Shown here piece after piece: positions 609 through 49,370 of a DNA stretch of 51,414 nt. Position 1 is the stretch's first letter, and every line of letters begins with the position of its first letter. Source of the stretch: Chloroflexota bacterium (GTDB lineage: Bacteria; Chloroflexota; UBA6077); assembly GCA_027356795.1 (NCBI GenBank), contig DAHVXI010000055.1:1-51414 (forward strand), given 5' to 3'. Below the pieces are notes generated by a model. That model searched no databases, had not been told where the DNA came from, and worked only from the letters and a program-made list of their open reading frames with translations. Position numbers and translations under genes: made by a program.

Positions 609-632
609 TCGCCGGCAGGAGCCGGCTCCTGC
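609..632. repeat. REP-like palindrome, GTAGGAGCCGGCTCCTRC family
   Basis: tcgccggcaggagccggctcctgc; related copies at 15928-15950, 46041-46064 and 48144-48165. Confidence 0.75.
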
Positions 633-706
633 TGGACCCGCCATTCGCTGCCGGAACGCTGATGGACACGAGACCTGGTGCTCAGTCACACGGATTTCGA
701 CAGGGC

Positions 707-759
707 GTAGGGGCAGATCTGTGCGTCTGCCCTGGGCGCTCACGCAGCTGCGCCCCTAC
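707..759. repeat. GTAG-type REP-like inverted pair
   Basis: gtaggggcagatctgtgcgtctgccc ... gggcgctcacgcagctgcgcccctac. Confidence 0.7.
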
Positions 760-1085
760 CGGCGTCATCGGCAACTGTCAAATCCGGTGTGTCCGAGTAC
801 TGGTGCACGACCATGTAGAAGATGACGCCCACGCTCCCAGCCGTCAAGACCACCGTAGCGAAGGCCCAGGACTGTGGAGCTGCGGCTATTCTGCCGATCA
901 TACCACGTAGGGACTGGGTGCGCTTCTTGCTTCTGGCTGCCGGATCGGCGTCTGGTGGAGCCGATCCGAGGGCTTGAAGGGTTCACCCGGCCATTCGAGG
1001 CCCGCCGACAGGCCGGCAGGCTGCGACAACAAAGCTCGCCCCAGCGGGCTGGAGGCCGGCAAAGGGGCTGGCGAGCGATACCGAA

Positions 1086-2222
1086 ATGGACAGGACTTTG
1101 GAACCTTCTTTCGCGGCCGGCAGGCTGTTGGGCATACGGATAGGTCTGAGCGCCAGTTGGTTTGTCGTCTTTGCCCTGGTCACCTGGAGTCTGGGGGCGG
1201 CGTACTTCCCTGCGGAGTACCCCTGGTGGCCGGCGGAGATCCACTGGGCGATGGCGATCTCGGGGAGCGCGCTCTTCTTTGGCTCGGTGTTGATCCACGA
1301 GCTGGCCCACTCCGTGGTGGCGGTGCGCTGTGGCATCCCCGTGACCCGCATAACCCTATTCATCTTCGGCGGTCTGGCCCAGGTCGGTCGGGAGGCCCCT
1401 ACCCCCCGCATCGAAGCCTCCGTTGCGGCGGCGGGACCGGCCGCCAGCCTGATCCTGGGGATCATCTTCGGCTTTCTCTATCTGGCGAGCAGGACGTTGA
1501 GCTCACCGCTGGCCAGCCTGTCCCTCTGGCTGGCGATAGTCAACGGCAGCCTGGCGCTGTTCAACCTGATCCCGGCTTTCCCGCTGGACGGGGGTAGGCT
1601 GCTGCGGGCAGGGGTGTGGTCGGTAACGAGCGACCACGGTCTGGCTACCCGGCTCTCCTCGTGGGCAGGGCAGTTCACGGGGATCCTGCTCGTTCTGTAC
1701 GGACTGTACTCCGCCCTTGGCGCCGAGGGGGGCCTGCTGAACGGCGTGTGGGCCGTGCTGGTGGGATGGTTCCTCCACAACGCGGCTCTGGGCAGCTATC
1801 GGGCCTCGAAGGCGTCGGACGAGCTGAAGGCGGTAACCGCCGAGGACGTGATGGCGCGGGACGTGGTCCCGGTGCCGGTGAACGCCACCGTGGCGGAGTT
1901 CGTGAACGGCTACCTTATGCGGCGCCGGCACGGTCGTTTCCCGGTGGTGGATGGCATACAGCTGGTGGGGACCGTGGGTCTGGAGGAGGTGCGCAAGGTG
2001 TCCATGGGCCGGCGCACCACCACGTGGATCCAGAAGGTGATGCGGTCCGCCGAGCGGTACCCACCCCTGGGCCCCCGCGAGCCCGCAGACCAGGCCCTCC
2101 AGCGGCTGAACGAGATGGAGGCGGAGGAGCTTCCGGTGGTGGATGAGGGCCGGGTCATCGGCATGCTCAGCCGGGCGGATCTCCTGAAGTTGGTCCAGGT
2201 GCGGGGGATCCTCCGCAAGTAG
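1086..2222 (+). CDS. Site-2 protease (peptidase M50) with C-terminal CBS pair
   Basis: HELAH, AAAGP and FNLIPAFPLDGGR motifs, TM segments and two CBS domains. Confidence 0.92.
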   Translation: MDRTLEPSFAAGRLLGIRIGLSASWFVVFALVTWSLGAAYFPAEYPWWPAEIHWAMAISGSALFFGSVLIHELAHSVVAVRCGIPVTRITLFIFGGLAQVGREAPTPRIEASVAAAGPAASLILGIIFGFLYLASRTLSSPLASLSLWLAIVNGSLALFNLIPAFPLDGGRLLRAGVWSVTSDHGLATRLSSWAGQFTGILLVLYGLYSALGAEGGLLNGVWAVLVGWFLHNAALGSYRASKASDELKAVTAEDVMARDVVPVPVNATVAEFVNGYLMRRRHGRFPVVDGIQLVGTVGLEEVRKVSMGRRTTTWIQKVMRSAERYPPLGPREPADQALQRLNEMEAEELPVVDEGRVIGMLSRADLLKLVQVRGILRK

Positions 2223-2300
2223 GACTGAGCTACGAGTACTGAGTACTGAGTGGCCGACGGCCAGTCCGCAATCCAGAGTCCAGAGTGCTGAGTGCTGGGC
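2222..2300. repeat. Heptamer tandem repeats (GTACTGA/GTGCTGA/AGTCCAG type)
   Basis: ggactgagctacgagtactgagtactgag...gtccgcaatccagagtccagagtgctgagtgctgg directly after the stop codon. Confidence 0.7.
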
Positions 2301-2333
2301 ATGGTTCACCAGGGCGCGAGATCGGGTGACAGT

Positions 2334-2389
2334 TGCGGGAGGGCGAGCCTCCCGGCGAGCCGGCTCAGCAGGAGCTTCGCCCTCCCGCA
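2334..2389. repeat. GGGAGGGCGAG...CTCGCCCTCCC palindromic mini-element (family C)
   Basis: Near-identical copies at 6592-6665 and 9287-9356; halves at 44751-44856. Confidence 0.85.
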
Positions 2390-2428
2390 CTGTGACCGCG
2401 TTTGTGAACCATCCCGAGTGCTGAGTCC

Positions 2429-3421
2429 TCAGTTCTGGCGGAGGTGGGCTGCCCTCGCTCGGGGAAGCACCTCCGGGTTCACCGCGTTCCGGGGCCTCTG
2501 GCCGCTCAGAACCCGCACCACCTCCTCGACCGCCCTGGTCTGTAGCTCCACCAGCGACTGCTCCGAGTAGAAGGAGGCGTGGGGGGTGAGGACCAGGTTG
2601 TCCAGCGCCAGGAGCGGATCGTCGGTCGCGGGGGGTTCCTGCGGCATCACATCCAGGCCGGCGCCGGCGATCCACCCCTCCCGAAGGGCGCGTTCCAGAG
2701 CGACCGTGTCGATGATGGGCCCCCGGGATGTGTTCAGCAGGTAGGCCGTCCGCTTCATCTTGCGCAGTTGGGCTTCCCCCATCAGCCCCCTGGTCTCAGG
2801 TGTGAGGGGCAGGTGGAGGGAGATGAAGTCCGACTGTCCCAGCAGCGTGTCGAAGTCGACCACCTCCACCCCCTGGAGGCTCTGGTCCCCCGGCCTCAGG
2901 GCGGGATCGTGAACCAGGATCCGGAGGTCCATCCCCGACGCTTTGCGAGCCAAGCTTCTGCCGATCTTCCCGAAGCCCACGATGCCCAGGGTGCTGCCGC
3001 TGACCCGGAAGAGCGGTCTGCCCATCAGGTTATCCCACCGTCCGGAGTGGGTGGCTCGATCGTACAGGGGGATCCGGCGGGCGCAGGCCAGCAGCAGCCC
3101 CAGCGCGTGCTCCGCCACCTCGTCGACGCAGAAGTCCGGCACGTTGGTGACCACGATGCCCAGCTCCGTGGCCGTCTCCAGGGCGATGTTGTCCACCCCG
3201 ATGCCGTAGCGGGCCACCTGGAGGCAGCGGGGGGCTGCCCGCAGGACCGCGGGCGTCACCTGGGCGAAGCAGGTCATGATGGCGTCGCAGCCGGCGGCCA
3301 GGCGGGCCAGTTCCGCCTCGGAGCCGTTCGGGGAGACGATCACCTCGGCTCCCACGGTGGAGAGGATCCGGCGCTCTACGTCGACGTTGGGCCACACGTG
3401 GTCGGTGATGAGGACCTTCAT
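2429..3421 (-). CDS. D-isomer-specific 2-hydroxyacid dehydrogenase (CtBP/SerA-like)
   Basis: RYGIGVDNI, GIVGFGKIG, NTSRG, GLDV..EP and TPHASFYS motifs. Confidence 0.9.
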   Translation of the reverse strand: MKVLITDHVWPNVDVERRILSTVGAEVIVSPNGSEAELARLAAGCDAIMTCFAQVTPAVLRAAPRCLQVARYGIGVDNIALETATELGIVVTNVPDFCVDEVAEHALGLLLACARRIPLYDRATHSGRWDNLMGRPLFRVSGSTLGIVGFGKIGRSLARKASGMDLRILVHDPALRPGDQSLQGVEVVDFDTLLGQSDFISLHLPLTPETRGLMGEAQLRKMKRTAYLLNTSRGPIIDTVALERALREGWIAGAGLDVMPQEPPATDDPLLALDNLVLTPHASFYSEQSLVELQTRAVEEVVRVLSGQRPRNAVNPEVLPRARAAHLRQN

Positions 3422-3427
3422 CTGAAC

Positions 3428-3571
3428 TCACTTCCCCCCTGTCCCTGTTGCTATCGACATGATGTCCAGGTTGTCTCGCTTTTGCCACCCCAGGCGAGTC
3501 CAGAACTCGGAGCCCTCGTCGTTGCTCGTATGAACGAAGAGGTGGCACTTGGCGATTCCGGCTTCGCTCAG
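3428..3571 (-). pseudogene. C-terminal remnant of a GNAT acetyltransferase
   Basis: The open frame reads LSEAGIAKCHLFVHTSNDEGSEFWTRLGWQKRDNLDIMS...*. It has no start codon, and an in-frame TGA lies upstream inside the adjacent palindrome. Confidence 0.65.
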
Positions 3572-3577
3572 CCCTAC

Positions 3578-3712
3578 TCCTTTCCCTCTGGGAGAGGGAG
3601 ATTCGAGCCCTCACCCCGACCCTCTCCTCGAGAGGAAGTAGCTGCACACTGAGAACTCAGAACTCAGAACCTGGTGGGCGGGATGCCCGCGCTCCCGGCA
3701 GCACTCAGAACC
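3578..3712. repeat. CCCTCACCCCGACCCTCTCC...GGGAGAGGG palindromic element (family B) plus AGAACTC heptamers
   Basis: ttccctctgggagagggag...gccctcaccccgaccctctcc followed by gagaactcagaactcagaacc. Confidence 0.75.
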
Positions 3713-6591: not shown

Positions 6592-6665
6592 TGCGGGAGG
6601 GCGAGGCTCCCGCCGAGCCATGTTCCGATGCATGGGTGGCTCGCCAGGAGGCTCGCCCTCCCGCA
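6592..6665. repeat. Family C palindromic mini-element
   Basis: tgcgggagggcgaggctcccgccgagcca...tggctcgccaggaggctcgccctcccgca. Confidence 0.85.
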
Positions 6666-8116: not shown

Positions 8117-8273
8117 CTGGCCCTCCTCAGCAAAACAGTGGGACGCCGTGGGCTGTGGCCAGCCTCCGAGGGTCCCCTCTCAGGTGCGGTCGCCCGCTGC
8201 TTAAACTCTCTTCAAGCCCTAGTTTAGCGAGTCTACAGGGGAATTATCAAACGTGGGAGGGGTAGGGGGGAAG

Positions 8274-9257
8274 CTACTTGTTGGCCGACAGGGTCTCCCG
8301 CCACCAGTTGAGGGTGTCCGTGAGGGTGCGTTCCAGGGGTATCTCCGCCTTCCAGCCCGTAAGCGACCGGAACTTGCCGCAGTCGGCGACTATCCGCGGG
8401 ATGTCGGAGGGGCGAAGCCGTTCGGGATCCTGTTCGATCCCCAGGGAGATCCGGCTCTGGGCCAGCAGCAGGTCGAGCAGCCGGCGTATCGATACCGCTC
8501 GCTCGCTCCCCAGGTTGTAGACGTCGCCGGGCACTCCCAGTGTCACCGCCAGGTGGTAGCCCCGGACGATGTCGCGGACGTCGGTGTAGTCCCGCTCGGC
8601 CTCCAGATTGCCCACCTTGAGAACGGCCGGCCTCAGGCCCAGCTCGGCCTCGGCTATCTGGCGCGCGAAGCTGGAGGCCACGAACCGGTCGCTCTGGCCG
8701 GGACCGATGTGGTTGAAGGGTCGGACGCGAACGATGGGTAGGTCGTAGGCCAGCTGGTACTGGTAGCCCAGCAGGTCCTGGCCCACCTTGCTGACGGCGT
8801 AGGGGTTGGCCGGACGGAAGGGGGTGGTCTCCTTGACGGGGAGATCCCCCGGCTCCACCATCCCGTATTCTTCGTTGGAGCCCACGACCATGATGGTAGG
8901 CCGTCCTCCCCAGGCCAGAACTGCCTGGAAGAGGTTCACCTGCCCGACGATGTTGTTGACGAGGGTGCCGGTTGGATCGGCGAAGGCGGTGGGTACGAAG
9001 GCCTGGGCAGCCAGATGAAAGATCCAGGTGGGCTGCACCCTTTCCACGATCTCGCGCATCCGGTCGGTCTCCATCAGGTTGCCGATCAGAACCTCGAGTC
9101 TGGGGCCCAGCTCTGCCTCGACGTCGGCCGTCGGTTCGCCCGGGCGGGCGATGCCGTAGATCTTGGCCGTGGTGGTGGTGGCCAGATACCTGGCCAGGTG
9201 CTTTCCCACGAAGCCGGCCATTCCTGTGATGAGGGCCCTGGGTTCAGTGTGCGTCAC
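8274..9257 (-). CDS. GDP-mannose 4,6-dehydratase / GDP-4-dehydro-6-deoxy-D-mannose reductase (Rmd-like) extended SDR
   Basis: GMAGFVG, HLAAQ, YAVSK, RPFNHIGPGQ and RDYTDVRD motifs. Confidence 0.85.
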   Translation of the reverse strand: MTHTEPRALITGMAGFVGKHLARYLATTTTAKIYGIARPGEPTADVEAELGPRLEVLIGNLMETDRMREIVERVQPTWIFHLAAQAFVPTAFADPTGTLVNNIVGQVNLFQAVLAWGGRPTIMVVGSNEEYGMVEPGDLPVKETTPFRPANPYAVSKVGQDLLGYQYQLAYDLPIVRVRPFNHIGPGQSDRFVASSFARQIAEAELGLRPAVLKVGNLEAERDYTDVRDIVRGYHLAVTLGVPGDVYNLGSERAVSIRRLLDLLLAQSRISLGIEQDPERLRPSDIPRIVADCGKFRSLTGWKAEIPLERTLTDTLNWWRETLSANK

Positions 9258-9286
9258 GCTTCAACCAATCCCCGATGTTGGGTGTC

Positions 9287-9356
9287 GGGAGGGCGAGCCT
9301 CCCGGCGAGCCACGTGTCCACCTCGTAAGGCGGCTCGGCAGGAGCCTCGCCCTCCC
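9287..9356. repeat. Family C palindromic mini-element
   Basis: gggagggcgagcctcccggcgagcc...ggctcggcaggagcctcgccctccc. Confidence 0.85.
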
Positions 9357-9392
9357 GCGGGACGTTCAACCGCCCCCAACCAATGGTAGCTG

Positions 9393-10670: not shown

Positions 10671-10690
10671 TCTCTCGCTCCTCTCTCTGC

Positions 10691-10729
10691 AGCCATCAGC
10701 TATCAGCCAGAAGCTGATGGCTGATGGCT
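10691..10729. repeat. Inverted heptamer hairpin (GCCATCA/GCTATCA)
   Basis: agccatcagctatcagc-cagaa-gctgatggctgatggct between ahcY and metK. Confidence 0.8.
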
Positions 10730-13858: not shown

Positions 13859-13877
13859 GCTGTTGTCCTCCGTGCTA

Positions 13878-14927
<1,050 letters not shown>

Positions 14928-15042: not shown

Positions 15043-15188
15043 CTCTCATCTTTCAGGACGGTGCCGTCCTGTCGGACTTGGCACCATGCCCACGCCGCCG
15101 CTGGATCGGTAACGGTCCAGCCCGTTCCCGCGGCAGGGCTGGTTGCCGGGCTTCATCGGGCCAGTCCCTCCACCACTCGCGATAAGAG
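15043..15188 (-). ncRNA. SAM-I (S-box) riboswitch
   Basis: CTCTTATC GCGAGTGGTGGAGGGACTGGCCCGATGAAGCCCGGCAACC...GGTGCCAAGTCC...GAAAGATGAGAG matches the SAM-I core and lies upstream of a SAM-cycle operon. Confidence 0.96.
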
Positions 15189-15782: not shown

Positions 15783-15946
15783 ACCGTTTCCTCTCCTCCT
15801 TGAGCCTTCCTCGGCACAGGCCGGCGGGGATTCTACCACATGCGGCGCGGAATCCAACTACTTGTTTCTGCCACTTAGGGCTGCGTCTCGCCGGGGCCGC
15901 TCCGGCGGGCCACCGCCCGGCTGAAATCGCCGGCAGGAGCCGGCTC

Positions 15947-19708: not shown

Positions 19709-19710
19709 CG

Positions 19711-19780
19711 ATCAGCTATCAGTTCTCAGCAGTCAGCAGTCAGCCACCGTGTTGAGGCTGACGGCTGACTGCTGACTGCT
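19711..19780. repeat. Inverted heptamer hairpin filling the pth-mfd spacer
   Basis: tcagctatcagttctcagcagtcagcagtcagcc...ggctgacggctgactgctgactgct. Confidence 0.8.
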
Positions 19781-19784
19781 CCCC

Positions 19785-20342: not shown

Positions 20343-20446
20343 GTTCCACTCCAAACACTCATAGGGGCTGGTCGCCGTGACCAGCCCCTGCGATCTCGCA
20401 GAAGCCCCCCTACTCTAGGCCGGGGCGCTATCGATATTGTACCAAA

Positions 20447-22740: not shown

Positions 22741-22866
22741 GCCTGTCCTCGATAGCACGTCCACATTCCATGGGACACAGGCCGTCTCAAAGGAGCACTC
22801 CGGCAGAACGGCGTCGAGCGCGTAAAGCAGAACTACACCACAGCCACGATGGATGAAGCTGAGGCG

Positions 22867-28623: not shown

Positions 28624-28658
28624 ACGTAGGGCGGGGTCTTGTGTGCCCCGCCCTACGT
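28624..28658. repeat. GTAG REP-like hairpin between convergent genes
   Basis: acgtagggcgggg-tcttgtgtg-ccccgccctacgt. Confidence 0.75.
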
Positions 28659-28662
28659 TAGC

Positions 28663-32273: not shown

Positions 32274-32294
32274 CGGATGCAACCTCCCCGGTTG

Positions 32295-32355
32295 GTAGGG
32301 GCGATCCCTGCGATCGCCCTGGGGCGAAGGTGGCGGGCGGAAGGTTCGCCCCTGC
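32295..32355. repeat. GTAG REP-like element between narJ and narI
   Basis: gtaggggcgatccctgcgatcgccc...ttcgcccctgc. Confidence 0.65.
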
Positions 32356-32374
32356 ACCGGATCGCCAGGCGTGT

Positions 32375-32935
32375 CTAGGGCGCGGCCTCCCCGCCCAGCG
32401 GGGCGGCAGGGGCGCCGGCCACTACGTCGACGGGAGCGAGCAGGGCGGCCACGGCCCGGAGCAGCCTTCCGTATGGGTGGGTCTCCTCCAGGGTCGGGGC
32501 CATCTTCTGCAGCACCGGGAGCAGGGCGTTCTCCACCAGGTCGCGCTCCACGGCCCCGTCCCGCTGGTGGCCCAGGAAGCGAAGCATCACCGCCAGGTGG
32601 TCCGGCAGCTCGTTACCGGTCGCAAACCCGGCGGCGCGGTAGTCCTCCTGGAGCTTCAGCATCAGGGCCGCCCGCCTCAGGTCCTCCCCCACCAGTTGGT
32701 AGCCCACGTAGGGGCAGCAGGCCGGGTTCAGGTCGAAGGTGGCCGTGTAGGTTTCCTCCAGGGAGCCTGGGGACCTGTCTTCTATCGAGGCCAGGAACTG
32801 CTCCATCAGCCCCTGTGCCTCGGGTCGAAGGGCGGCCACGAGGCCCGCGCATTGGTGGGCCTTCTCCCGAAGGTCGCCCCTGGGATACTCCAGCAGCTTG
32901 CCAAGCAAGCGGTAAAGGCTGCCGTTCTCCTCCAA
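32375..32935 (-). CDS. narJ: Nitrate reductase molybdenum-cofactor assembly chaperone
   Basis: LLEYP, YTATFD and ELPDHL motifs. Confidence 0.9.
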   Translation of the reverse strand: MEENGSLYRLLGKLLEYPRGDLREKAHQCAGLVAALRPEAQGLMEQFLASIEDRSPGSLEETYTATFDLNPACCPYVGYQLVGEDLRRAALMLKLQEDYRAAGFATGNELPDHLAVMLRFLGHQRDGAVERDLVENALLPVLQKMAPTLEETHPYGRLLRAVAALLAPVDVVAGAPAAPLGGEAAP

Positions 32936-32936
32936 C

Positions 32937-34427
<1,491 letters not shown>

Positions 34428-34436
34428 GGCCGTCTC

Positions 34437-37400
34437 CTACCAGTTCAGCTTGCTCAGCTTCCGCACGTATGCGAAGGTGTCGCGGTTGACGCCGATGGGA
34501 CCCCAATAGTTGAAGGCGTAGGTGAACTGGGCATAGCCTCCTGCCATCAGCACCGGGTTCAACCGGATGCGGGTGAGGCTGTTGTGGGTGCCGGCCCGTT
34601 TGTTCCCCCGCAGCGGCGACTTGGGGACCGAGATGGTGCGCTCCGGCGCGTGGTAGAAGAAGGCCGTGCCCCTCGGTATGCGGGCGCTCACCACGCACCG
34701 CGTCACCACCACGCCGTTGTCGTTGTACACCTCCACCCAATCGTTGTCCCGCACCCTCAGCGCCTCGGCGTCTCGATCGTTCAGCCAGAATGGCTCCACC
34801 CCTCGGGACAGGGTCAGCATCCGGTGGTTGTCCATGTAGGTGGAGTGGATGTGCCACTTGCCGTGAGGGGTAAGCACGTTGACCAGGAGGGCGCTTCGGT
34901 CCACCTGGCTGTTCTCCATCTCGTTCAGAACCAGCGGGCTCGCCTTGGCCTTGTAGGTGGGCAGCTGCTCCCCGAACTCCAGGTACAGCTGGTGGTCCAG
35001 GTAGAACTGCTGCCGCCCCGTCAGGGTGCGCCAGGGGACCAGCCGGTCCACGTTGAGGGCGAAGCCGGTGTAGGCCCGGCCGTCGTTGACGATCCCCGAC
35101 CAGCAGGGGCTGGTGAGGAAGCGGCGGGGCTGGTCCACCAGGTCGGCGAAGCTGTACCGGACCCCCCGGTACTTCTCGGCCAGATCTGTGAGGGGCAGAC
35201 CCACCTTCGCCTCCTCCTCCTTGAAGGCCCGATAGGCCACCTCTCCGTTGGTCTCCGGGGCCAGCAGCAGGATTGCGTTGGCCGCGTCCACCACCTCCGA
35301 CAGGGAGGGGTATCGCCGCCCGTCCCACTCGACGGTGGGGGACTGGGCAAGCATCTGATCGTACAGATCGTCGACCTTCCAGCGGATCCCGTGGGCGCCG
35401 ATGCCCGCCGCCCGGACCGTCGGACCCAGGGAGATGAAGCGGTTGTAGAGGTTGGCGTAGTCCCGCTCCACCACCGACATCCAGGGCATGGTCTTGCCGG
35501 GGATGGGTGCGCACTCCCCCTTAGCCCACTCCCTGATCTCCGGCTGGGCGATCTCGTCGGGTGTGTCGTGGGCCAGGGGCGTGCACACCAGGTCCTTCAC
35601 CGGATCGGGCAGGTGGGTCTGGGCGAGCTCGGATACCTTCTTGGCGATGGCTTTGAAGATCTCCCAGTCGCTCTTGGACTCCCAACATGGGGGCACCGCC
35701 TCGCCCAGGTTGTGGACGTAGGAGTGGAGGTCGGTGGTGTTCAGGTCGTTCTTCTCGTACCAGGTGGCGGCCGGCAGGACGATGTCGGAGTAGAGGGCGG
35801 AGGTGTCCATCCGGAAGTTGAGGTCCACCACCAGGTCGATCTTCCCCTTGGGGGCCTCGGGCCGCCACACTACCTCCTCGACCTTCCCCTCGGCCTGCTC
35901 CCGGGCCATGGCGTTGGAGTTGGCGTCCAGGTAGTGGCGCATGAAGAACTCGTGGCCCTTGGCGCTGGCCATCAGGGCGTTGCCGCGCCAGATGAACCAG
36001 AGTCGGGGCCAGTTCTCCGGGGCGTCCGGGTCCTGGACCGCGAAGCGCAGCGGCGACGGGGAGACGGGATGACTGGGCGACGGGGAGACGGTTTCCTCTC
36101 GCCCCGTCTCCCCGTCGCTCTGTCGCCCCGTCTGGAGCTGCTGCACCACCCAATCCACGACCTCCTGGTCGGTCTGGGCGCCGGCCGCTGCCGCCTGCTG
36201 CACCAGCTCCAGGGGACTGCGGTCGAACTGGGGGTAGGAGGGCAGCCAGCCCATCTGCACCGCCTTCACCTGCACGTCCATGGTGTGCCCCCTGGCGTAC
36301 CGGCCGCCCGGCGGCACCGGGTGGTAGGCGGTGAAGTCGCCCTCGTAGCGCCACTGATCGCAGTTGACGTAATGGAAGGAAGGGGTGTTCTGCTGCCTGG
36401 GGGGCTTGACCCAGTCCAGGGCGAAGGCCAGGGTGGACCAGGACGCGAAGGGCGCCACCTTCTCCTGGCCGACGTAGTGGTTCATGCCGCCGCCGTTCTT
36501 GCCCTCGCAGCCGCACAGCATCAGGGCCGTCATGGCGGAGCGGTAGATCAGGTTGCTCTGGTACCACTGGTTCACGCCGGCGCCCACGATGATCATCGAC
36601 CGGCCCTCGGTGCGCTCGGCGTTGCCGGCGAACTCCCGGGCGAAGTGGATCACCGTCTGGCCGTCGATGCCGGTGAACTTCTCCTGCCAGGCGGGGGTGA
36701 AGGGGACGTCCTCCTCGTAGCCGGTCGGGTACTCCCCGGGCAACCCCCTGGAGACCCCGAACTGGGCCATCATCAGGTCCAGGACGGTGGCCACCGCCAC
36801 CCGACCCTGCTCCGTCTCCAGGTACTTCACCGGCACGCCCCGGGCCGGAGGCTCGCCGTCGCCGAACTCCGTGATCCGGACCGGCAGGATGGCGTCTTCA
36901 TGGCCCAGCAGCGACAGGGCGGGGTCTATGGGGGAGCCGTCGAGGCCGTCCTCGTGCTGGAGGTTCCAGCCGCCCTTCTCGTGGCCCCAGCGGAAGCCTA
37001 TGCTCCCCCTGGGCATTCGGAGGTCGCCGGAGAGGCGATCGTAGACCAGGAACTTCCAGTCGCCGTTCTCCGCATCCCGGTAGCGGGCCAGGGACTTTGC
37101 GCGGAGGAGCCGATCCGGTCGATAGGTGGCTCTGGCGCTCCAGCCCTCACCCCGACCCTCTCCCATGGGGAGAGGGAATCCGTCCCCACCCGCTCCCTCT
37201 GGGTGAGGGTGTTTGCTGTCTGCCGACCTCTCGGGTCGGAGAGTCACCAGGAAGCTGCAGTCGGTGTAGCGCTTCAGGTAGTCCAGGAAGTAGGGGACCT
37301 GCCGGTCGACGTAGAACTCCTTCAGGATGACGTGGTTCACGGCCATCCAGAAGGCGCCGTCCTGGCCGGCGCTCACCGGCAGCCACCAGTCGGCGTACTT

Positions 37401-38216
37401 GGACACCTGGCTGAAGTCGGGCGATAGCACCACCAGCTTGGTCCCGTTGTGGCGCGCCTCGGCCACGAAGTGGACGTCCGGCGTGCGGGTCATGCTCAGG
37501 TTGGCGCCCATCACCACGATGTACTTGGAGTTGTACCAGTCGGCGCTCTCGCAGACGTCGGTCTGCTCGCCCCACACCTCCGGAAAGGCGTTGGGCAGGT
37601 CGGCGTACCAGTCGTAGAAGCTGAGGACCGTCCCTCCGATCAGGCTGAGGAAGCGGGAGCCGGCGGCGTAGCTGAGCATCGACATGGCCGGGATGGGGGA
37701 GAAGCCCACCACTCTATCCGGGCCGTGGCGCCGGATGGTGTAAATGGTGGAGGCGGCGATCAGCTCCAGCACCTCGTCCCAGTCGGTCCGGCGGAAGCCG
37801 CCCTTGCCTCGGGCACGCTGGAAGCTGGACCGGGCCGCCTCGTCCTCCATGATGGAGGCCCAGGCCTCCACCGGGTCGGCGTGCCGGCTCCTCGCCTGCC
37901 GCCACAGATCCAGCAGAACGCCGCGAGCGTAGGGATACTTCACCCGAAGGGGGCTGTAGATGTACCAGGAGAAGGAGATGCCCCGCTGGCACCCCCTGGG
38001 CTCGTAGGGGGGAAGCCCGTCCCCCAGCTTGGGGTAATCCAGGGCCTGGTTCTCCCAGGTGACGATGCCGTCCTTGACGAAGACGTTCCACGAGCAGCCT
38101 CCGGTGCAGTTCACCCCGTGGGTGCTGCGCACCGTCTTATCGTGCTGCCAGCGGTTCCGATAGAACTCCTCCCAGCTGCGCTCGCCGGGGCTCAGGATGT
38201 CCTTGATCCAGCTCAT
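34437..38216 (-). CDS. narG: Nitrate reductase/nitrite oxidoreductase alpha subunit (Mo-bisPGD, cytoplasmic type) with two in-frame repeat insertions
   Basis: [47 protein letters not shown] and FNYWGPIG motifs; no Tat signal. Confidence 0.93.
36052..36133. repeat. Inverted octamer-repeat hairpin in-frame in narG
   Basis: Five GGMGACGG-type units, a spacer and four CCCCGTCK-type units. Confidence 0.85.
37143..37211. repeat. Family B palindrome in-frame in narG
   Basis: gccctcaccccgaccctctcccatggggagaggga...gggtgagggtg. Confidence 0.88.
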
Positions 38217-39127
38217 CTCCCCCTCCTTCCGACCAGCCGTCGTCGAACGCCCTGGGATCGCCCTCGCTGGCCGACCTGCATCAGCCCCAGGAAGAGGGCG
38301 AAGGCCCCCAGTCCGACGAGGGGGAAGGCGTAGCTTGGGGCCGGTCCCTCCTGGGTGGTGTCGACCTGGGCGAGGAAAGCCGTCACGTCGGCGACCTCCT
38401 GGTCGGTGATGGGGTGCGAGGCGAAGGCCTCGGTCATGCCCGGGTAGGGCGGTGATTTCAGGATGGAGGCCAATCCGGCGACGCCGAACCTGGTGTGGGC
38501 GTGGGTCAGGTCGAGGCCCATGCTGCCGCCGCCCAGGGCCCCTACCCCCGCCACGTCGTGGCAGCCGATGCATGCGGAGCCGCCGTTGGCCGGCCGCTGC
38601 TCGCCGGCTACGAGGAGCCGGCCGGTGGCGGCGTTGCCGGGGGGCAGGACGGAGGCAGCGGCGCCCGCCGCGGCTGCGCCCCCACCCCCGCTCTGGGCCG
38701 CGACGTAGGACAGGATCGCCTCGGCGTCGGCCCTGGACACCCCCACGTTGGGCATCGGCATGCCGAACTCCTTGGCCAACTGGACGGCGGTGGGATCGCC
38801 GCCGGCGATCAGCCTGTCCGGTGCCGTGATGAAGTCCACCAGCCAGTCGTGGGGACGCTGTTCCGCCACCCCCTCGAGGTCAGGTCCGGCCAACTTGCCC
38901 CCGCCGATGGTGTGGCAGCCGGCGCACTTGGCGTCGAAGGTGGCCTTCCCCTTCGTCGAGTCGACGGCGAGGGAGGCGGTCGCCGCACCGGCTTTCTGGG
39001 CGGTAGGGGTGGTGCCCTGTCCAGGGAGGGTCTCCGTCTGCCAGCGGAAGGCCACGACGGAGAGCGTGGCACCGAGGGCGGTGGCCCCGACCAGGAGACC
39101 CAATCCGAGAAGGTGAACCGATCTCAT
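38213..39127 (-). CDS. Membrane-anchored diheme cytochrome c (NarC-like)
   Basis: N-terminal hydrophobic signal, CAGCH and CIGCH heme sites, C-terminal TM, and ATGA overlap with narG. Confidence 0.85.
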
Positions 39128-39439: not shown

Positions 39440-39488
39440 GGGGGTTCCTGGGGGACCCGTTAGTACACGACCACAAGGTGATATGTAC

Positions 39489-39558
39489 TGTCATGCTGAG
39501 CGCAGCGAAGCATCTCCCCGTGGCGAGAGGAGATCCTTCGCTATCGCTCAGGATGACA
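39489..39558. repeat. TGTCAT.CTGAGCG.AGCGAAG...CTTCGCT..CGCTCAGGATGACA palindromic element (family E)
   Basis: Long inverted arms; second copy at 44765-44834. Confidence 0.82.
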
Positions 39559-39614
39559 CCTGTCAGAACCAATGTGGCGGAGTACTAGGTGCATCGTTCC
39601 TCAAATGCAATACT

Positions 39615-39751
39615 GTAGGGTGGGGTCTTGTGCCCCGCCGCTCGGTGTCAGATGTGCGGCCACCGGCGGGGATAGACCCCCGCCCTACTTAAGGGACGAC
39701 GCCCTTAGCTAATCTGGAAACGCCGCTGTAGCGTCGGGGCTTGTCCCCGAC
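39615..39751. repeat. Cluster of GTAG REP-like elements
   Basis: gtagggtggggtcttgtgccccgcc...ggcggggatagacccccgccctac and gtagcgtcggggcttgtccccgac, the latter identical to 46095-46118. Confidence 0.78.
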
Positions 39752-39835
39752 CAGGACTGCTGGGAATGGGAGATCTGCCTGAAGGGCCCGATCCGTGCAG
39801 GCAGGGGCATGAAGGAACCGGTGGAGGTGTGAGGG

Positions 39836-40600
39836 ATGGACGAGCGGGTGCCGCTCTACGATCAGTTCAGCGAGAGCTACGACGTCATGGTGGCCTGGGA
39901 GGAGCGGCTGGAGCGCGAGGAACCCTTCTTCCGGGAGATCTTCCAGCGGGCCAAGGCCCGGCGGGTGCTGGACGTGGGCAGCGCCACGGGCGGCCACGTC
40001 CTCCGCTTCGCGGAGATGGGCCTGGAAGCGGTGGGAGTGGATCCCTCGGCTGAGATGGTGCGCCGGGCCGAGGCTCGGGGCGCAGGCCGCCGGGGAGTAC
40101 GGTTCCTGCAGGCCGGCTTCGGCGAGTTGGCCCAGCGAGTGGGTGACGGCTTCGACGTGGTCACCTGCATTGGGAACACCCTTCCCCACGCCACCACTCG
40201 GCCCGATCTAAACCGCGCCCTAGCGGACATGGCCGCGGTTCTGCGACGCGGCGGGCTGCTGGTGATCCAGCAGCTCAACTACGACCGGATCCTGGCAGAG
40301 CAGCGCCGCTTCCTGGGGACATCCTCCGGGGTGCGGGGCGAGGTAGAGTATCTCTTCTTCCGCTTCTACGACTTCCACGGGGAGAAGCTCACCTTCAACG
40401 TCGTCACCTTCAGGAAAGAGGCCGGACAGTGGAGCTTCCAGGTGGGCTCGACCTCCTTGCGGGCGACCCGGCAGGGAGAGGTGGCCGAGGCCCTGGCACG
40501 CGCGGGCTTCGATTCGGTCCAGTGGTACGGTAGCTATGGCAAGGAGCCCTTCGACCCCGCCTCCTCGGGCGACCTGGTGGCGGTTGCTGCCCGGCGGTGA
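39836..40600 (+). CDS. Class I SAM-dependent methyltransferase
   Basis: VLDVGSATG, GVDPS, FDVVTCIGNTLPH and LNYDRIL motifs. Confidence 0.88.
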   Translation: MDERVPLYDQFSESYDVMVAWEERLEREEPFFREIFQRAKARRVLDVGSATGGHVLRFAEMGLEAVGVDPSAEMVRRAEARGAGRRGVRFLQAGFGELAQRVGDGFDVVTCIGNTLPHATTRPDLNRALADMAAVLRRGGLLVIQQLNYDRILAEQRRFLGTSSGVRGEVEYLFFRFYDFHGEKLTFNVVTFRKEAGQWSFQVGSTSLRATRQGEVAEALARAGFDSVQWYGSYGKEPFDPASSGDLVAVAARR

Positions 40601-40648
40601 ACCTCTCCCCGGCCCCCTCCCCGACACGGGGAGGGGGCCGGGGAGAGT
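40601..40648. repeat. Family B-like hairpin after the methyltransferase stop
   Basis: cctctccccggccccctccccg-aca-cggggagggggccggggagag; resembles the mfd insert at 18317-18356. Confidence 0.7.
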
Positions 40649-44577: not shown

Positions 44578-44655
44578 AACCACAAAGACCCTAAGACCCT
44601 AAGACCCTAAGGGGCACCAAGCTCTCCTGGTGGTTCTTCGTGTCCTGGTGTCCTG
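44578..44655. repeat. Inverted 8-9-mer repeat element (ACCACAAAGAC..AAG / CTTCGTGTC)
   Basis: aaccacaaagaccctaagaccctaagaccctaag...cttcgtgtcctggtgtcc; related half at 46240-46274. Confidence 0.65.
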
Positions 44656-44750: not shown

Positions 44751-44856
44751 GGGCGAGCCGCCCCTGTCATCCTGAGCGAAGCGAAGGATCTCGGCCGTCG
44801 GTTCCGCGACGTGCTTGGCTTCGCTCGGCATGGCCGCCCAAGAGGCTCGCCCTCCC
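44751..44856. repeat. Family E element nested in family C arms
   Basis: gggcgagcc [tgtcatcctgagcgaagcgaaggatct...cttcgctcggcatggc] ggctcgccctccc. Confidence 0.75.
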
Positions 44857-44983
44857 GCGTTATCAGTTCTTGCGCGGAGGCAGTAAAATGGTCGCTGCCA
44901 ACCCACGACGGGAGCCGCGGGACGCGGCCTGGAAAAGGGGGCCGAGGGATCTCGGCCGCGGTGTAGGAGTAAGGAGGATCCTC

Positions 44984-45477: not shown

Positions 45478-46044
45478 ATGGAGAGGTGTCCCTGGTGTGG
45501 TACCGAGGAGCTGTACGTCCGGTACCACGACGAGGAGTGGGGTGTCCCCGTTCACGACGACCGGAAGCAGTTCGAGTTCCTGGTGCTGGAGGCTGCCCAG
45601 GCGGGGCTCAGCTGGATCACCATCCTGCGGAAGCGGGAGGGGTACCGGAAGGCCTACGTGGGGTTCGATGCCCAGGCGGTCGCCCGCTATGGGGAGCAGC
45701 AGGTCGAGCGGCTGCTGGCCAACCCGGGCATCGTCAGAAACCGCCGGAAGGTCGAGGCCTCCGTCAACAACGCGGCGCGGTTCCTGGAGGTCCAGGGGGA
45801 GTTCGGCAGCTTCGACCGCTACCTCTGGCGCTTCGTGGACCATGAGCCGGTCCGGAACCGGTGGCACACCCTGGACGAGATCCCTGCCAGGACCCCCCTC
45901 TCGGAGGAGGTCAGCGAGGACCTCCGGCGCCGGGGCTTCACCTTCCTGGGCCCCACGGTGGTCTATTCCCATCTGCAGGCGGTAGGGCTGGTCAACGACC
46001 ACCTGGTGAGCTGCTTCCGGTACCGGCAGCTTTCGCAGCCGTAG
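45478..46044 (+). CDS. tag: DNA-3-methyladenine glycosylase I
   Basis: RCPW, YHDEEWG, LEAAQAGLSW..IL.KR, IVRNRRK and NDHLVSC motifs. Confidence 0.95.
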   Translation: MERCPWCGTEELYVRYHDEEWGVPVHDDRKQFEFLVLEAAQAGLSWITILRKREGYRKAYVGFDAQAVARYGEQQVERLLANPGIVRNRRKVEASVNNAARFLEVQGEFGSFDRYLWRFVDHEPVRNRWHTLDEIPARTPLSEEVSEDLRRRGFTFLGPTVVYSHLQAVGLVNDHLVSCFRYRQLSQP

Positions 46045-46196
46045 GAGCCGGCTCCTGCCGGCGACCCGTGACCGAGAGGTGAAAGGCCCATCCTGTAGCG
46101 TCGGGGCTTGTCCCCGACGAGGTACCCGTCGCCCACGAGGGGCGACGCTACGTAGAGACGTGGCACCACGTCGCCCACAAGAAGGGGCGACGCTAC
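46041..46196. repeat. Cluster of GTAG REP-like elements (BIME-like)
   Basis: gtaggagccggctcctgccggcga; gtagcgtcggggcttgtccccgacg; two gtcgccc...ggggcgacgctac units. Confidence 0.8.
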
Positions 46197-46293
46197 ATGG
46201 GGCCTTTCCGCGGCGGCCACAGGGCGTCACCAGGTAGGATTCGTGCATCCTCGTGTCTTGGTGCCTTCGTGGTCTTGAAGGAGGTTCTCCCTC

Positions 46294-47217
46294 ATGCGGT
46301 ACCGGTTCTACACTGTCGACGTCTTCACCGATCGGGTCTTCGGCGGCAATCCCCTGGCGGTGCTCCCGGACGCTCAGGGGCTGGAGCCGGAGCAGATGCT
46401 GCGGATCACACGGGAGTTCAACCTCTCCGAGACCGTCTTCGTGTTCCCTCCCCAGGAGCGCGGCCACACCCGGCAGGTGAGGATCTTCACACCCGCCCAG
46501 GAGCTCCCCTTCGCCGGCCATCCCACCGTCGGCACCGCCTTCCTGCTGGCCTCCATCGGGGAGGTGGACCTGGAGGGCGAGGTCACCACGGTGGTCCTGG
46601 AGGAGGGTGTGGGTCCGGTCTCCGTCGCCATCCAGGCCGAGCGAGGCGAACCGTTCTCGGCCATGCTCTCCGTCGCCAAGCTGCCGGAGTTCGGGCCTCC
46701 GCCTCCTCCCCTGGAGGCCATCGCCGAGACGCTGTCGCTGGACCCGGGGGATCTGCTCACCGGCGAAATCGGCCCTCAGGCGGTCTCCTGTGGAAACCCC
46801 TTCCTCTTCGTGCCGGTAAGGGACCGGTCGGTCCTGGCGAGGGTTCGGGTGAGCCCGACCGCCTGGGAGCGCCACCTGGCCCCCTACTGGGCGCCCAAAC
46901 CCTACATCTTCACCTTCGACGTCGAGTTGCCCGAATCGTCCGTGCGGGCTCGCATGTTCTCTCCCTCCATAGGCCTCAGGGAGGATCCCGCCACGGGATC
47001 GGCGTCCGCCGCCCTGGCCGGGTACCTGGGGGTCCGGGACCGCACCGAGGTGGGGACCCTTCGCTGGCAGGTGGAGCAGGGCTTCGAGATGGGGCGGCCC
47101 AGCCTGCTTCAGGTGGAAGCCGACAAGGCGCGGGGGCAGATCACCGCGGCCAGGGTGGGTGGTCGCTGCGTGCGGGTGAGCGAGGGGACCATGGAGGTCC
47201 CGATTCACACCAGGTGA
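46294..47217 (+). CDS. PhzF-family isomerase
   Basis: VDVFT..FGGNPLAV, NLSETVF, ELPFAGHPT and EDPATGSA motifs. Confidence 0.93.
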   Translation: MRYRFYTVDVFTDRVFGGNPLAVLPDAQGLEPEQMLRITREFNLSETVFVFPPQERGHTRQVRIFTPAQELPFAGHPTVGTAFLLASIGEVDLEGEVTTVVLEEGVGPVSVAIQAERGEPFSAMLSVAKLPEFGPPPPPLEAIAETLSLDPGDLLTGEIGPQAVSCGNPFLFVPVRDRSVLARVRVSPTAWERHLAPYWAPKPYIFTFDVELPESSVRARMFSPSIGLREDPATGSASAALAGYLGVRDRTEVGTLRWQVEQGFEMGRPSLLQVEADKARGQITAARVGGRCVRVSEGTMEVPIHTR

Positions 47218-48143: not shown

Positions 48144-48165
48144 CTGTAGGAGCCGGCTCCTACAG
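48144..48165. repeat. Perfect 22-bp REP-like palindrome overlapping the hemerythrin stop
   Basis: ctgtaggagccggctcctacag. Confidence 0.8.
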
Positions 48166-48564
48166 CCTGGTCTTCAGGTAGGCCCCCAGGGCCTTGTCGG
48201 ACTGGCGGATGTGCTTGTTCAGCCAGTCGATCACCCGACGCTGGATGGCGATCACCAGGGTGGTGGAGGCGCCCTGGGTCTCGTAGCTCTTGGCCAGATC
48301 GCCAAAGTCCCTCAAGAAGGCCAGATGTTCCCCCTTGTGGCCCGTGATCCCGCCGTAGCCATGCTGGACCATGGCCTTCTCTTCGGTGCCGAAATGGGTA
48401 ACCACGTAGTCGGACAGGAATTGGATCAGCTTGCCAACCTCGTCTTTGCCCCTGCCCTGGCTGCTTGCCTGCAGCAGCTGATCTATCCTCTTGAAGAGTT
48501 CTTTGTGCTGGTCGTCGATCAGGGATACCCCCACCGCTAGATCGGGCGTCCACTGTACTGCCAC
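48160..48564 (-). CDS. Bacteriohemerythrin
   Basis: IDDQH, HF..EE..M, H...H and WL..HI...D di-iron ligand motifs. Confidence 0.93.
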   Translation of the reverse strand: MAVQWTPDLAVGVSLIDDQHKELFKRIDQLLQASSQGRGKDEVGKLIQFLSDYVVTHFGTEEKAMVQHGYGGITGHKGEHLAFLRDFGDLAKSYETQGASTTLVIAIQRRVIDWLNKHIRQSDKALGAYLKTRL

Positions 48565-48720
48565 CTTGCTGCCTCCTGCCTTCTCTGTTGGGATCCGGAC
48601 CCTTCAAGGTGCTGGACAATGCGGGAGAAGGTCCGTTCCCTAGAGAGATTCATCGGCAGGAGCGAGGGCGTTCTGAAGATCAGGGGATGTCAAGATGGCT
48701 TCATGCCTTCTGAATGCCGC

Positions 48721-48754
48721 GATAGGGGACGGGCCTTCGCGCCCGCCCCCTATC
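48721..48754 (-). terminator. Hairpin after the YHS gene (possible terminator)
   Basis: gataggggacgggc...gcccgccccctatc; no strong U-tract. Confidence 0.4.
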
Positions 48755-48766
48755 TTGGTCAAGAGA

Positions 48767-48970
48767 CTAGTGATGGTGCTCGTGATGCTCGTGCTCGGGC
48801 ATCATGTGGGCGTGGCCGGCGGCGCTGTGGATGTACCTCTCCGGGTCCTTTTCGAAGGATTCCTTGCAGCTGCGGTTGCAGAAGTAAAAGGTTTCGCCGG
48901 CGTACTCCACCCTGTCGGCGGTCTTGGGATCGCACTCCATCCCGCAAACTGGATCTCTAGCCATGGCCAT
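48767..48970 (-). CDS. YHS/TRASH domain protein with His-rich tail
   Basis: DPVCGM, YFC..SC..F..DPERY and HEHHEHH tail. Confidence 0.88.
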   Translation of the reverse strand: MAMARDPVCGMECDPKTADRVEYAGETFYFCNRSCKESFEKDPERYIHSAAGHAHMMPEHEHHEHHH

Positions 48971-49099
48971 CTGGACGCTCCTTCCGTTCCAGCCCTAAGG
49001 CTGTCTTACCCTCTCTGGGACCCCCGCCAGAACCACGAAGGGGCGACCCGTCGGGTCGCCCCTTCGTTGATGATGCGCCGGCAGGAGGTTAAGGGCCTG

Positions 49100-49309
49100 C
49101 TAGTTCGAGGCGGGGTAGCCCTCGTCGGCCATGACCTGCTTGATCCGTGCCAGGTCTACCTTGGCAGGATCGAAGGTGACCTGGACGTCCTTGGTGCCAG
49201 GGTCAGCCTCCACGCCGGAGACTCCCTCCAGCTTGCCCACGGCATTCTTGACCGTCATGACGCAGTGCATGCAGGAGATGTCGGGGGCGTGCAGGGTCTT
49301 GGTTTCCAT
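49100..49309 (-). CDS. copZ: Copper chaperone (HMA domain)
   Basis: ISCMHC motif, 69 aa, next to a Cu-ATPase. Confidence 0.88.
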   Translation of the reverse strand: METKTLHAPDISCMHCVMTVKNAVGKLEGVSGVEADPGTKDVQVTFDPAKVDLARIKQVMADEGYPASN

Positions 49310-49334
49310 CGGTCTTCTCCTTACTCTTGGGTTA

Positions 49335-49370
49335 TCCCCTCTCCCTCTGGGAGAGGGTCAGGGTGAGGGC
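49335..49370. repeat. Family B palindromic element
   Basis: tcccctctccctctgggagagggtcagggtgagggc between copA and copZ. Confidence 0.85.

Follow-up and report, generated by a model that had tools for sequence, protein, structure and literature searches.

Short repeats in a Chloroflexota contig as probable arms of very small selfish cassettes, with copies in frame in Mfd and NarG

The window considered here, that is, the whole 51.4 kb stretch of DNA that was analysed, is the entire contig C74 of a Chloroflexota assembly (G000; 1,991,934 bases in 97 contigs, 64% complete, 66% GC). Six families of short repeats (A to F) are scattered through it, at about 28 mini-element sites in about 22 loci. 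Comparison with related genomes suggests that these sites are probably the arms, single or in pairs, of various very small selfish cassettes, none of whose genes lies in the window. By a Pfam scan of 47 candidate open reading frames (ORFs), the window itself encodes ordinary housekeeping functions, for the most part on the minus strand. They include mfd (15947–19708), narGHJI (31581–38573), methionine-salvage genes, metK and the S-adenosylhomocysteine (AdoHcy) hydrolase gene. No transposase, DUF559, stand-alone GIY-YIG or four-helix-bundle gene was found among these 47 ORFs. This agrees with the first-pass annotation, an earlier reading of the sequence alone, which had described at least six repeat families and no mobiliser within the window.

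The features are listed by position. Strands are given for the two genes; the repeats are listed without a strand. Heptamer arrays are family A, triplex-type palindromes and triplex motifs are family B, palindromes tagged by GTAG, including repetitive extragenic palindromes (REPs), are family D, and octamer arrays are family F. The family E element is a miniature transposable element with inverted repeats (MITE).

607–632: degenerate short GTAGGAGCCGGCTCC-type palindrome (D1); 13-mers up to 52 times in the genome; inverted match to 46043–46073
707–759: GTAG...CTAC-tagged palindrome, family D (strict GTAG palindrome scan)
2224–2299: heptamer arrays ACTGAGT, TCCAGAG and GAGTGCT, flush with the stop of an M50 peptidase gene (Tandem Repeats Finder)
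2335–2388: family C palindrome, copy 1 (repeat finder)
2416–2435: heptamer remnant adjoining the stop of the 2-hydroxyacid dehydrogenase gene (13-mer map)
3579–3639: family B triplex-type motif, a hairpin and a second, degenerate unit (hairpin detector)
3648–3712: heptamer array ACTCAGA and a remnant (Tandem Repeats Finder)
6592–6665: family C palindrome, copy 2 (repeat finder)
9286–9358: family C palindrome, copy 3 (repeat finder)
10690–10729: heptamer hairpin, two inverted arrays with no gene inside (Tandem Repeats Finder, 13-mer map)
13874–13890: heptamer array that runs over the stop codon of an IF-2B-family (MtnA-like) gene (Tandem Repeats Finder)
15926–15952: D1 GTAG palindrome overlapping the Mfd stop (13-mer map)
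15947–19708, minus strand: mfd, 1253 aa, host of two in-frame composites (Pfam, orthologue alignment)
18244–18400: in-frame Mfd composite at aa ~436–488, with heptamers at 18244–18294, a triplex-type palindrome at 18305–18355 and octamers at 18359–18400
19225–19368: in-frame Mfd composite at aa ~114–160, with a triplex motif at 19236–19271 nested in heptamer arrays at 19281–19368
19711–19780: heptamer arrays upstream of mfd, inverted relative to 19320–19362 (Tandem Repeats Finder)
22903–22944: triplex motif between two glycosyltransferase genes (hairpin detector)
24652–24751: triplex motif pair filling the gap between two convergent stops (hairpin detector, 13-mer map)
28624–28660: GTAGGGCGGGGTCTTG-type REP (13-mer map, GTAG scan)
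34437–38216, minus strand: narG, with two in-frame inserts; the protein probably starts at MSWIKD, 119 codons inside the open frame (Pfam)
36052–36132: octamer hairpin, in frame in NarG (Tandem Repeats Finder, repeat finder)
37132–37211: triplex motif, in frame in NarG (repeat finder, orthologue comparison)
39461–39588: family E MITE of ~128 nt, other copies of which end CTAGTAC...GTACTAG; central TGTCATGCTGAGCG... hairpin (13-mer map)
39615–39756: GTAG REPs (GTAGGGTGGGGTCTTG...CCCGCCCTAC, and a GTAGCGTCGGGGCTTGTCCCCGAC half) (13-mer map, GTAG scan)
40600–40646: triplex-type palindrome directly after a methyltransferase stop (hairpin detector)
44585–44611: octamer array AAGACCCT, its unit different from GGGGAGAC (Tandem Repeats Finder)
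44765–44858: family E arm and degenerate partner, then a family C half copy (repeat finder, 13-mer map)
46039–46197: D1 palindrome and two GTAGCG/GTAGAG-type REPs (13-mer map, GTAG scan)
48144–48165: D1 palindrome CTGTAGGAGCCGGCTCCTACAG (13-mer map)
49334–49371: triplex motif (hairpin detector)

Tandem Repeats Finder, a repeat finder and a map of 13-mer multiplicity against the whole G000 genome place all six families at or near the positions given in the first-pass annotation. The 13-mer map recovers the same places without prior knowledge, and a 14-mer census ranks the mini-repeat families as the most abundant repeats of G000, which carries 246 triplex hairpins, 86 heptamer arrays and 30 family E cores in total. 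The family A arrays, of period 7, lie at 2224–2251, 2272–2297, 3648–3670, 10690–10729, 13874–13890, 18245–18294, 19287–19368 and 19726–19780 (Tandem Repeats Finder). The arrays at 10690–10729 are inverted relative to one another, as are those of the pair 19320–19362/19706–19748. The hairpin detector gives 15 family B matches in the window. Ten are judged real and fall at nine sites, the approximate number first proposed (starts at 3579, 18319, 18348, 19236, 22903, 24652, 24728, 37156, 40613 and 49336); the remaining five lie within ordinary coding sequence and look like chance. The strict core of family B is present in 5 copies in the window and 48 in the genome. Family C, a 73-nt palindrome, has the three full copies previously noted (2335–2388, 6592–6665 and 9286–9358) plus a half copy at 44831–44858.

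A strict scan finds eight GTAG palindromes of family D in the window (159 in the genome); 100 simulations gave 0.55 on average and never more than 4. Three of the eight lie within coding sequence and look like chance. Together with four short D1 copies (at 607, 15926, 46039 and 48144) and others read by eye, the total is about ten, which makes the earlier count of more than ten sites borderline. The exact 22-mer by which family E had been defined occurs once in the genome. Its core has 30 genome matches, two of them in the window, and the copy at 39461–39588 belongs to a MITE of ~128 nt with ~15–17 near-identical genome copies. Family F comprises GGGGAGAC-type octamer arrays at 18359–18400 and 36055–36132, with a distinct octamer at 44585–44611. 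The octamer GCGATCGC has 200 copies in the genome and 6 in the window. A S-adenosylmethionine (SAM) riboswitch is the only Rfam match in the window, so none of the mini-repeat families corresponds to a curated RNA. This riboswitch (RF00162, 82.9 bits, minus strand, 15043–15188) lies upstream of a run of IF-2B-family (MtnA-like), PNP_UDP_1, PfkB, AdoHcy hydrolase and MetK genes.

The families share sites. All seven spots that had been named as co-occupied hold two or more of them. Of the 246 triplex hairpins in the genome, 20 are no more than 60 nt from a heptamer array, where random placement gives a mean of 1.76 and a maximum of 6 in 300 placements; 11 of 246 lie near an octamer array, against 0.45. 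Neither null is restricted to intergenic DNA. In the short intergenic spacers of the window alone, rough arithmetic puts co-occupancy not clearly above chance. What produces the excess are the sites inside genes and a composite of octamers, triplex motif and heptamers that recurs.

To judge by its sequence, family B is the BoxC/PIT/TM intrastrand-triplex motif described by Holder et al. (2015, PMC4666352), and the term "poorly described", used in the first-pass annotation, does not apply to this repeat. Table 1 of that paper gives 23 E. coli K-12 copies ("TM_ECO") with the family B architecture and nearly identical sequence. The part of the paper cited here places the motif in more than 260 genomes and describes the E. 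coli copies as always intergenic, unlinked to transposases or integrases and variable in their flanks. The exact family B 22-mer of the window occurs in at least 118 stretches of a species-representative collection, each time with the same hairpin upstream; hosts among the matches listed are Enterobacteriaceae, Myxococcota, Burkholderiales, Planctomycetota, Acidobacteriota, Chloroflexota and others. In E. coli K-12, a BoxC-like hairpin and a partial duplicate of the ycjD 3' end are found at ycjD, which is annotated as DUF559; the hairpin covers the stop codon. The published copy TM_ECO no. 9 (PMC4666352) lies ~170 nt downstream of this gene.

Genes paired with the repeats were sought in 39 genomes of the window's order, which are non-independent samples. 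The repeat detectors were custom-built and strict, and a score of none often corresponds to a degenerate copy that is visible by eye. The order-wide tallies for DUF559, PF05635, small GIY-YIG, octamers and RAYT (REP-associated tyrosine transposase) include G037, which is flagged as unpublished, and the phylum-wide DUF559 tally includes G075; no flank analysis or further claim depends on either. The lines below give the number of loci in the order-level genomes with each repeat in the flanks, up to 300 nt from the domain match.

DUF559 (n = 16): triplex hairpin 16, heptamer array 1, E motif 0
Four-helix bundle (n = 27): triplex hairpin 1, heptamer array 23, E motif 0
Small GIY-YIG (n = 14): triplex hairpin 0, heptamer array 1, E motif 7
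UvrC control (n = 14): triplex hairpin 0, heptamer array 0, E motif 0

These flanks document, with a nearly exclusive match of gene to repeat, the pairings of families A, B and E with four-helix-bundle, DUF559 and GIY-YIG genes, respectively, that the first-pass annotation had suggested. DUF559 genes are present in 21 of the 39 genomes. The 16 loci analysed score ~100 bits or more, 14 partial, weak or long-ORF matches having been excluded. With 350-nt flanks, and one locus dropped by the ORF filter, 10 of 15 have triplex hairpins on both sides. Hairpin density is 2.98/kb beside DUF559, compared with 0.093/kb in distal sequence and 0.123/kb across G000. The E-x-D-G motif is kept in 14 of 15 aligned DUF559 proteins. 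Elsewhere in the phylum 27 new loci were collected, and 25 remained after removal of two with the domain inside a long ORF. Triplex hairpins are found at 20 of these 25 and on both sides at 9, over a GC range of 44–70%, and their density is 2.19/kb beside the gene versus 0.16/kb away from it.

Four-helix-bundle genes (PF05635; the NCBIfam name of the protein type is TIGR02436, "four helix bundle protein") occur in 22 of the 39 genomes. Flanks read by eye reveal inverted heptamer arrays on both sides of nearly every one. The strict detector, applied to 27 loci after three truncated or sub-threshold loci were left out, finds arrays on both sides at 13, on one side at 10 and on neither at 4. Array density is 3.40/kb beside these genes versus 0.11/kb distally and 0.043/kb in G000. 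At 7 of the 14 small GIY-YIG loci (L209 was excluded, its genome being flagged as unpublished) the flanks are inverted TGTCATCCTGAGCG.AGCGAAGGATC arms, found by a pattern allowing up to 5 mismatches, and the remaining loci carry related or different palindromes. The genes L200–L203 are bracketed by palindromes of GCTCATCCTGAGCCTGTCGAAGGATGAGC type and GTCATTCCCGCGCATGCGGGAATC type, which suggests further arm families for this gene family. At L210 (G013:C108), a GIY-YIG cassette with family E arms lies inside long heptamer arrays, one cassette type being nested in the arms of another. With DUF559, four-helix-bundle and GIY-YIG genes alike, the repeat variant changes from gene to gene yet agrees between the two flanks of one gene.

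For family D, a RAYT-like gene in G002 (L274) and its counterpart in G001 (L278) are flanked by the GTAGGGCGGGG.CTTG family, which is also present in the window at 28624–28660 and 39615–39688. No Y1 transposase gene flanked by this family was found in G000, which is 64% complete. The only Y1_Tnp gene of G000 (C4:7218–7850, L265) is bracketed by inverted GGCTTTAGCC...CGGGCTGAAAA hairpins unlike any family of the window. Hairpins like these are also found beside the Y1_Tnp genes of G001, G002 and G004, and G001 has one as an insert opposite window position 8167–8279. Arrays of the GGGGAGAC octamer number 19 in G000, 14 in G001, 1 in G003, 5 in G004, 4 in G007 and 0 in the other 34 genomes. They are thus confined to the window's family and one neighbouring family, and a reversed-pattern control gave 0. 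At 21 loci no gene was found between inverted octamer arrays, and the pairing of family F with GxxExxY genes, suggested in the first-pass annotation, is only conjectural.

G000 itself has one DUF559 gene (on C73), one Y1_Tnp gene, and GIY-YIG domains solely in two UvrC-sized frames; neither a PF05635 match nor a small GIY-YIG gene was found in this 64% complete assembly. Neighbouring repeat clusters in G000 enclose 55 small-ORF intervals, of which the DUF559 interval on C73 was the one examined. A family E pair 1.2 kb apart on C16 was considered as a nuclease cassette and rejected; the enclosed gene is an ordinary NHL-repeat gene. No link of DUF559, four-helix-bundle or GIY-YIG genes to flanking repeats was found in the open-access literature, searched without supplementary files or subscription journals.

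Turnover was followed in G001, a sister species in the same genus with ~82% nucleotide identity, whose syntenic contigs cover parts of the window. Pairwise alignments at 12 comparable loci give 6 at which the repeat is absent, 4 with another family, 1 with the family retained and 1 that could not be aligned. The absent ones are 2224–2435, 3579–3712, 6592–6665, 9286–9358, 22903–22944 and 46039–46274, the last within a larger G001 deletion. In G001 the spot of the heptamer array at 13874–13890 holds a triplex motif and a GTAG REP, that of the triplex pair at 24652–24751 another palindrome, that of the D1 copy at 48144–48165 another GTAG REP, and that of the triplex motif at 49334–49371 a heptamer hairpin. 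The hairpin at 10690–10729 is of the same family in G001 and differs in length, and the REP at 28624–28660 gives no alignment. Conversely, G001 carries inserts at the equivalent of 8167–8279 that are missing from G000. Presence/absence polymorphism and shared hot spots, both anticipated by the first-pass annotation, are therefore found at genus level, and again in Mfd, NarG and the gyrB-gyrA spacer described below.

Such turnover bears on the idea that selection keeps the elements in place because they serve the host, as terminators, mRNA stabilisers, or sites of protein binding or supercoiling. Many copies do lie exactly at gene ends, for example at 2224, 13874, 15926, 24652–24751 and 40600. 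The retention of the family at just 1 of 12 loci and the copies within coding sequence make this explanation very improbable, and the earlier study quoted by Holder et al. (2015, PMC4666352) found, as they relate it, no promoter or terminator activity of the triplex motif.

A local origin of most copies, through slippage, template switching and gene conversion by the host on structure-prone DNA, with small genes accumulating in unstable spacers, would account for the different array lengths at one conserved site in G000 and G001 and for the gene-sized indels that adjoin repeat clusters in the window. Local instability has also been associated with the triplex motif in published work (Holder et al. 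2015, PMC4666352, in the part cited here). This origin leaves unexplained the one-to-one specificity of gene and repeat family with 0 of 14 at UvrC, the exact 22-mer common to many phyla, and the near-identical 128-nt copies at ~15–17 places, and it is considered improbable as the general cause.

Two genes beside repeat clusters are affected. The 2-hydroxyacid dehydrogenase gene (2429–3421), which has clusters on both sides, and the cluster 2224–2435 are missing from this site in G001 (window 2223–3430). The PhzF-family gene (46294–47217) is mostly deleted in G001 (window 46019–47141), where two short remnants of its 3' part directly follow the methyladenine glycosylase stop. Part of the window at 16000–25900 is contained in 16 public runs from 5 studies (mine drainage, sediment, tailings and soil metagenomes), 6 of which contain at least half of its sampled words.

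The spacer between gyrB and gyrA provides a comparison of filled and empty sites (loci L143, L144, L141, L171, L176 and L305). In G000 it holds a DUF559 gene bracketed by triplex-type palindromes (C73:8946–9456, L143; Pfam). A DUF559 gene with triplex motifs occupies it in G000, G002 and G004, which all belong to the window's family. In G022 and G025, both from another family, its place is taken by a four-helix-bundle gene with heptamers. The spacer of G003 is 113 nt long and has neither gene nor repeat. These comparisons indicate that the spacer is a common landing place for different cassettes.

The main rival to the cassette interpretation reverses the order of events. The repeats would have come first, spread by another route, and the small genes would be homing-type parasites that cut a palindromic repeat and copied themselves in, leaving a split or duplicated repeat on both sides. 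Gene-less copies vastly exceed gene-bearing ones, and the paired gene-less palindromes at 10690–10729 and 24652–24751 resemble unoccupied targets. The DUF559 gene of G000 and G002 has a copy of one triplex module on each side, in direct orientation, like a duplicated target, and two of the three gene families are nucleases. Against homing, neither the triplex motif nor the gene is present in the gyrB-gyrA spacer of G003, no nuclease activity is known for the four-helix-bundle protein, and the repeat variant varies with the gene copy, which fits a unit travelling together better than entry into an existing family. Homing is therefore regarded as unlikely, though a more serious contender than the other explanations.

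Four sites in the window lie in frame within genes, two in Mfd and two in NarG. The mfd gene is a single open frame of 1253 codons. Of 12 aligned orthologues, 4 carry an insert at its first site, after residue 113, where G003 is empty, and 5 carry one at the second, residues ~436–488. The inserted sequence is different in every filled orthologue. Residues 117–165 and 425–521 face 12 and 53 residues, respectively, of the solved M. smegmatis Mfd. The first site consists of a triplex motif nested in heptamer arrays, the second of heptamers, a triplex-type palindrome and octamers. In NarG, G021 is empty at both sites, and G003 has different inserts there. In-frame insertion, as proposed in the first-pass annotation, is thus documented for these two proteins and supported for others. 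Of 335 repeat clusters in the genome, 53 fall inside long ORFs whose GC content at third codon positions is coding-like on both sides; 24 of these were judged to be mini-elements and the rest codon-bias words. Sixteen further host ORFs of G000 were scanned, and in 12 of them the insert is preceded and followed by Pfam domains. The hosts include UvrC, an ABC exporter, SAM hydroxide adenosyltransferase, PurM-like, FTCD, SMC_N, Mur ligase, CobQ, ABC-F and DinG-like helicase proteins, and two cases (Liv, Opp) may be junctions of neighbouring genes.

The octamer-triplex-heptamer composite recurs among these hosts, and the peptide it encodes matches other ORFs in G000 and G001. As the Mfd copy at 18244–18400 is open in only 1 of 6 frames, the use of the same frame across hosts is expected from selection alone. 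In the UvrC of G000 (C1:636–2618, L342) the composite lies within the RNase H-like endonuclease domain, where 196 residues are matched to a 159-position profile.

These features can be combined as follows. In related genomes a complete cassette consists of a single small gene with a copy of its family's repeat on each side. The types are a DUF559 gene, encoding a Vsr-like PD-(D/E)XK nuclease, between triplex-type palindromes; a PF05635/TIGR02436 gene between inverted heptamer arrays; a small GIY-YIG nuclease gene between inverted family E arms; and a RAYT-like Y1 transposase gene between GTAG repeats. Gene-less copies would be scars or non-autonomous derivatives that cassettes, since lost or become rare, left behind, or that were spread in trans. 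Insertion would return repeatedly to a small set of permissive places, namely gene ends, spacers within operons, linkers and surface loops, so that families nest into composites, and within genes only frame-preserving copies would survive, giving rise to new protein segments. One-gene cassettes with persisting solo or paired arms are put forward because the specificity, the co-variation of arm and gene, the empty sites and the replacement of families at fixed spots all fit them. From the pairings, from the quick gain, loss and exchange of elements that relatives show at identical spots, and from the in-frame copies in Mfd, NarG and other proteins, all seen by sequence comparison, we infer that the elements are mobilised.

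Several observations weigh against this reading. The evidence is associative and comparative, and no movement was observed. G000 has many arms (246, 86 and 30 in families B, A and E) but one DUF559 gene and no four-helix-bundle or small GIY-YIG gene in its 64% complete assembly. G003, which is 100% complete, has no DUF559 or PF05635 match, yet its Mfd and NarG carry inserts. No parent gene was found for families C and F; for F, none of 21 loci has a gene between inverted octamer arrays. No DUF559 ORF was found in 80 loci (573 kb, many phyla) that carry the exact family B 22-mer. Around DUF559 the triplex motifs are repeated directly in G000 and G002 but inverted in G023, so that no single terminal-repeat geometry holds. 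No target-site duplication was defined for the elements, because the nearest comparison genome is only ~82% identical. Heptamer array lengths vary in place, as replication slippage would also produce, and to judge from the alignments local slippage clearly contributes to this variation. For the four-helix-bundle family, we know of no catalytic or nuclease activity. With that family, the G003 inserts and the want of a transposition signature in mind, the phrase "nuclease-driven" in the first-pass annotation goes beyond the data, and its overall interpretation is partly supported.

A broader proposal is offered tentatively, as somewhat less probable than the reading of the window. DUF559 with triplex arms, four-helix-bundle genes with heptamer arrays and small GIY-YIG genes with TGTCATCCTGAGCG arms could be three classes of one-gene cassette that are widespread bacterial mobile elements. 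Their shed arms could be the source of long-unexplained repeats, including E. coli BoxC/PIT/TM and heptamer arrays, and repeated hits on the same permissive sites could build composites that give core proteins, for instance Mfd, NarG, UvrC and Mur ligase, new loops. Short interspersed repeats rank among the least explained parts of bacterial genomes, and the over-representation of heptamer arrays is known without an explanation. The pairings hint at the origin of some of these puzzling repeats. A specific partner gene for each of three repeat families raises a question of mechanism that can be addressed in E. coli, where ycjD lies beside such motifs, and turnover at fixed spots supplies natural filled and empty alleles. 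In-frame copies show how selfish DNA can extend essential proteins with further segments. For annotation, the elements inflate ORFs and create spurious peptides, and recognising them improves gene calls in high-GC genomes.

Each family resembles a known system in part. GTAG REPs are mobilised by RAYT transposases. Family D agrees with them in its GTAG/CTAC-tagged palindromes of 18–75 nt, in tens of copies, and in the Y1-transposase-like genes that it flanks in G001 and G002; it differs in that no such gene was found in G000, at 64% completeness, whose only Y1_Tnp gene is flanked by other hairpins. Rickettsia palindromic elements and Coxiella MITEs are short palindromic elements that insert in frame. 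The inserts of the window are likewise short palindromes that survive in ORFs and add peptide segments, with the frame open and the site empty in orthologues. They have no sequence relation to those elements, several unrelated families nest at the same codon positions, and their presumed parents are one-gene cassettes, not insertion sequences. Family E is like MITEs in general in being shorter than 300 nt, with terminal inverted ends and near-identical copies; its inner arms match the flanks of small GIY-YIG genes, and no transposase was found and no target-site duplication defined for it. Free-standing homing endonuclease genes (GIY-YIG, PD-(D/E)XK) are small, stand-alone and patchy. The cassettes share with them the small stand-alone nuclease genes, the patchy occurrence in conserved operon spacers and the empty sites in relatives. 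They differ in carrying their own repeated arms, which also occur in many gene-less copies, and in that one type encodes a protein not known as a nuclease.

Heptameric tandem repeats also go by the name STRR. Those of cyanobacteria and Xanthomonas are over-represented intergenic arrays, often convergent inverted pairs (Rehm et al. 2015, PMC4692102), and family A is similar in these respects. The part of that paper cited here mentions no associated gene, whereas the arrays accompany 23 of 27 four-helix-bundle loci in the genomes compared here. The closest likeness is that of family B to BoxC/PIT/TM (Holder et al. 2015, PMC4666352). Judged by sequence, both have the order CCCTCTCCC, loop, GGGAGAGGG, 4-nt spacer, GGTGAGGG within ~34–37 nt, with a homopyrimidine-homopurine hairpin (CCCTCTCCC/GGGAGAGGG) and a third, G-rich block (GGTGAGGG) after the short spacer, and both occur in many copies and many phyla, as inverted pairs and with variable flanks. 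Unlike the E. coli copies, which that paper describes as always intergenic and for which its cited part reports no mobility gene, family B is found in frame in Mfd, NarG and other ORFs and brackets DUF559 genes.

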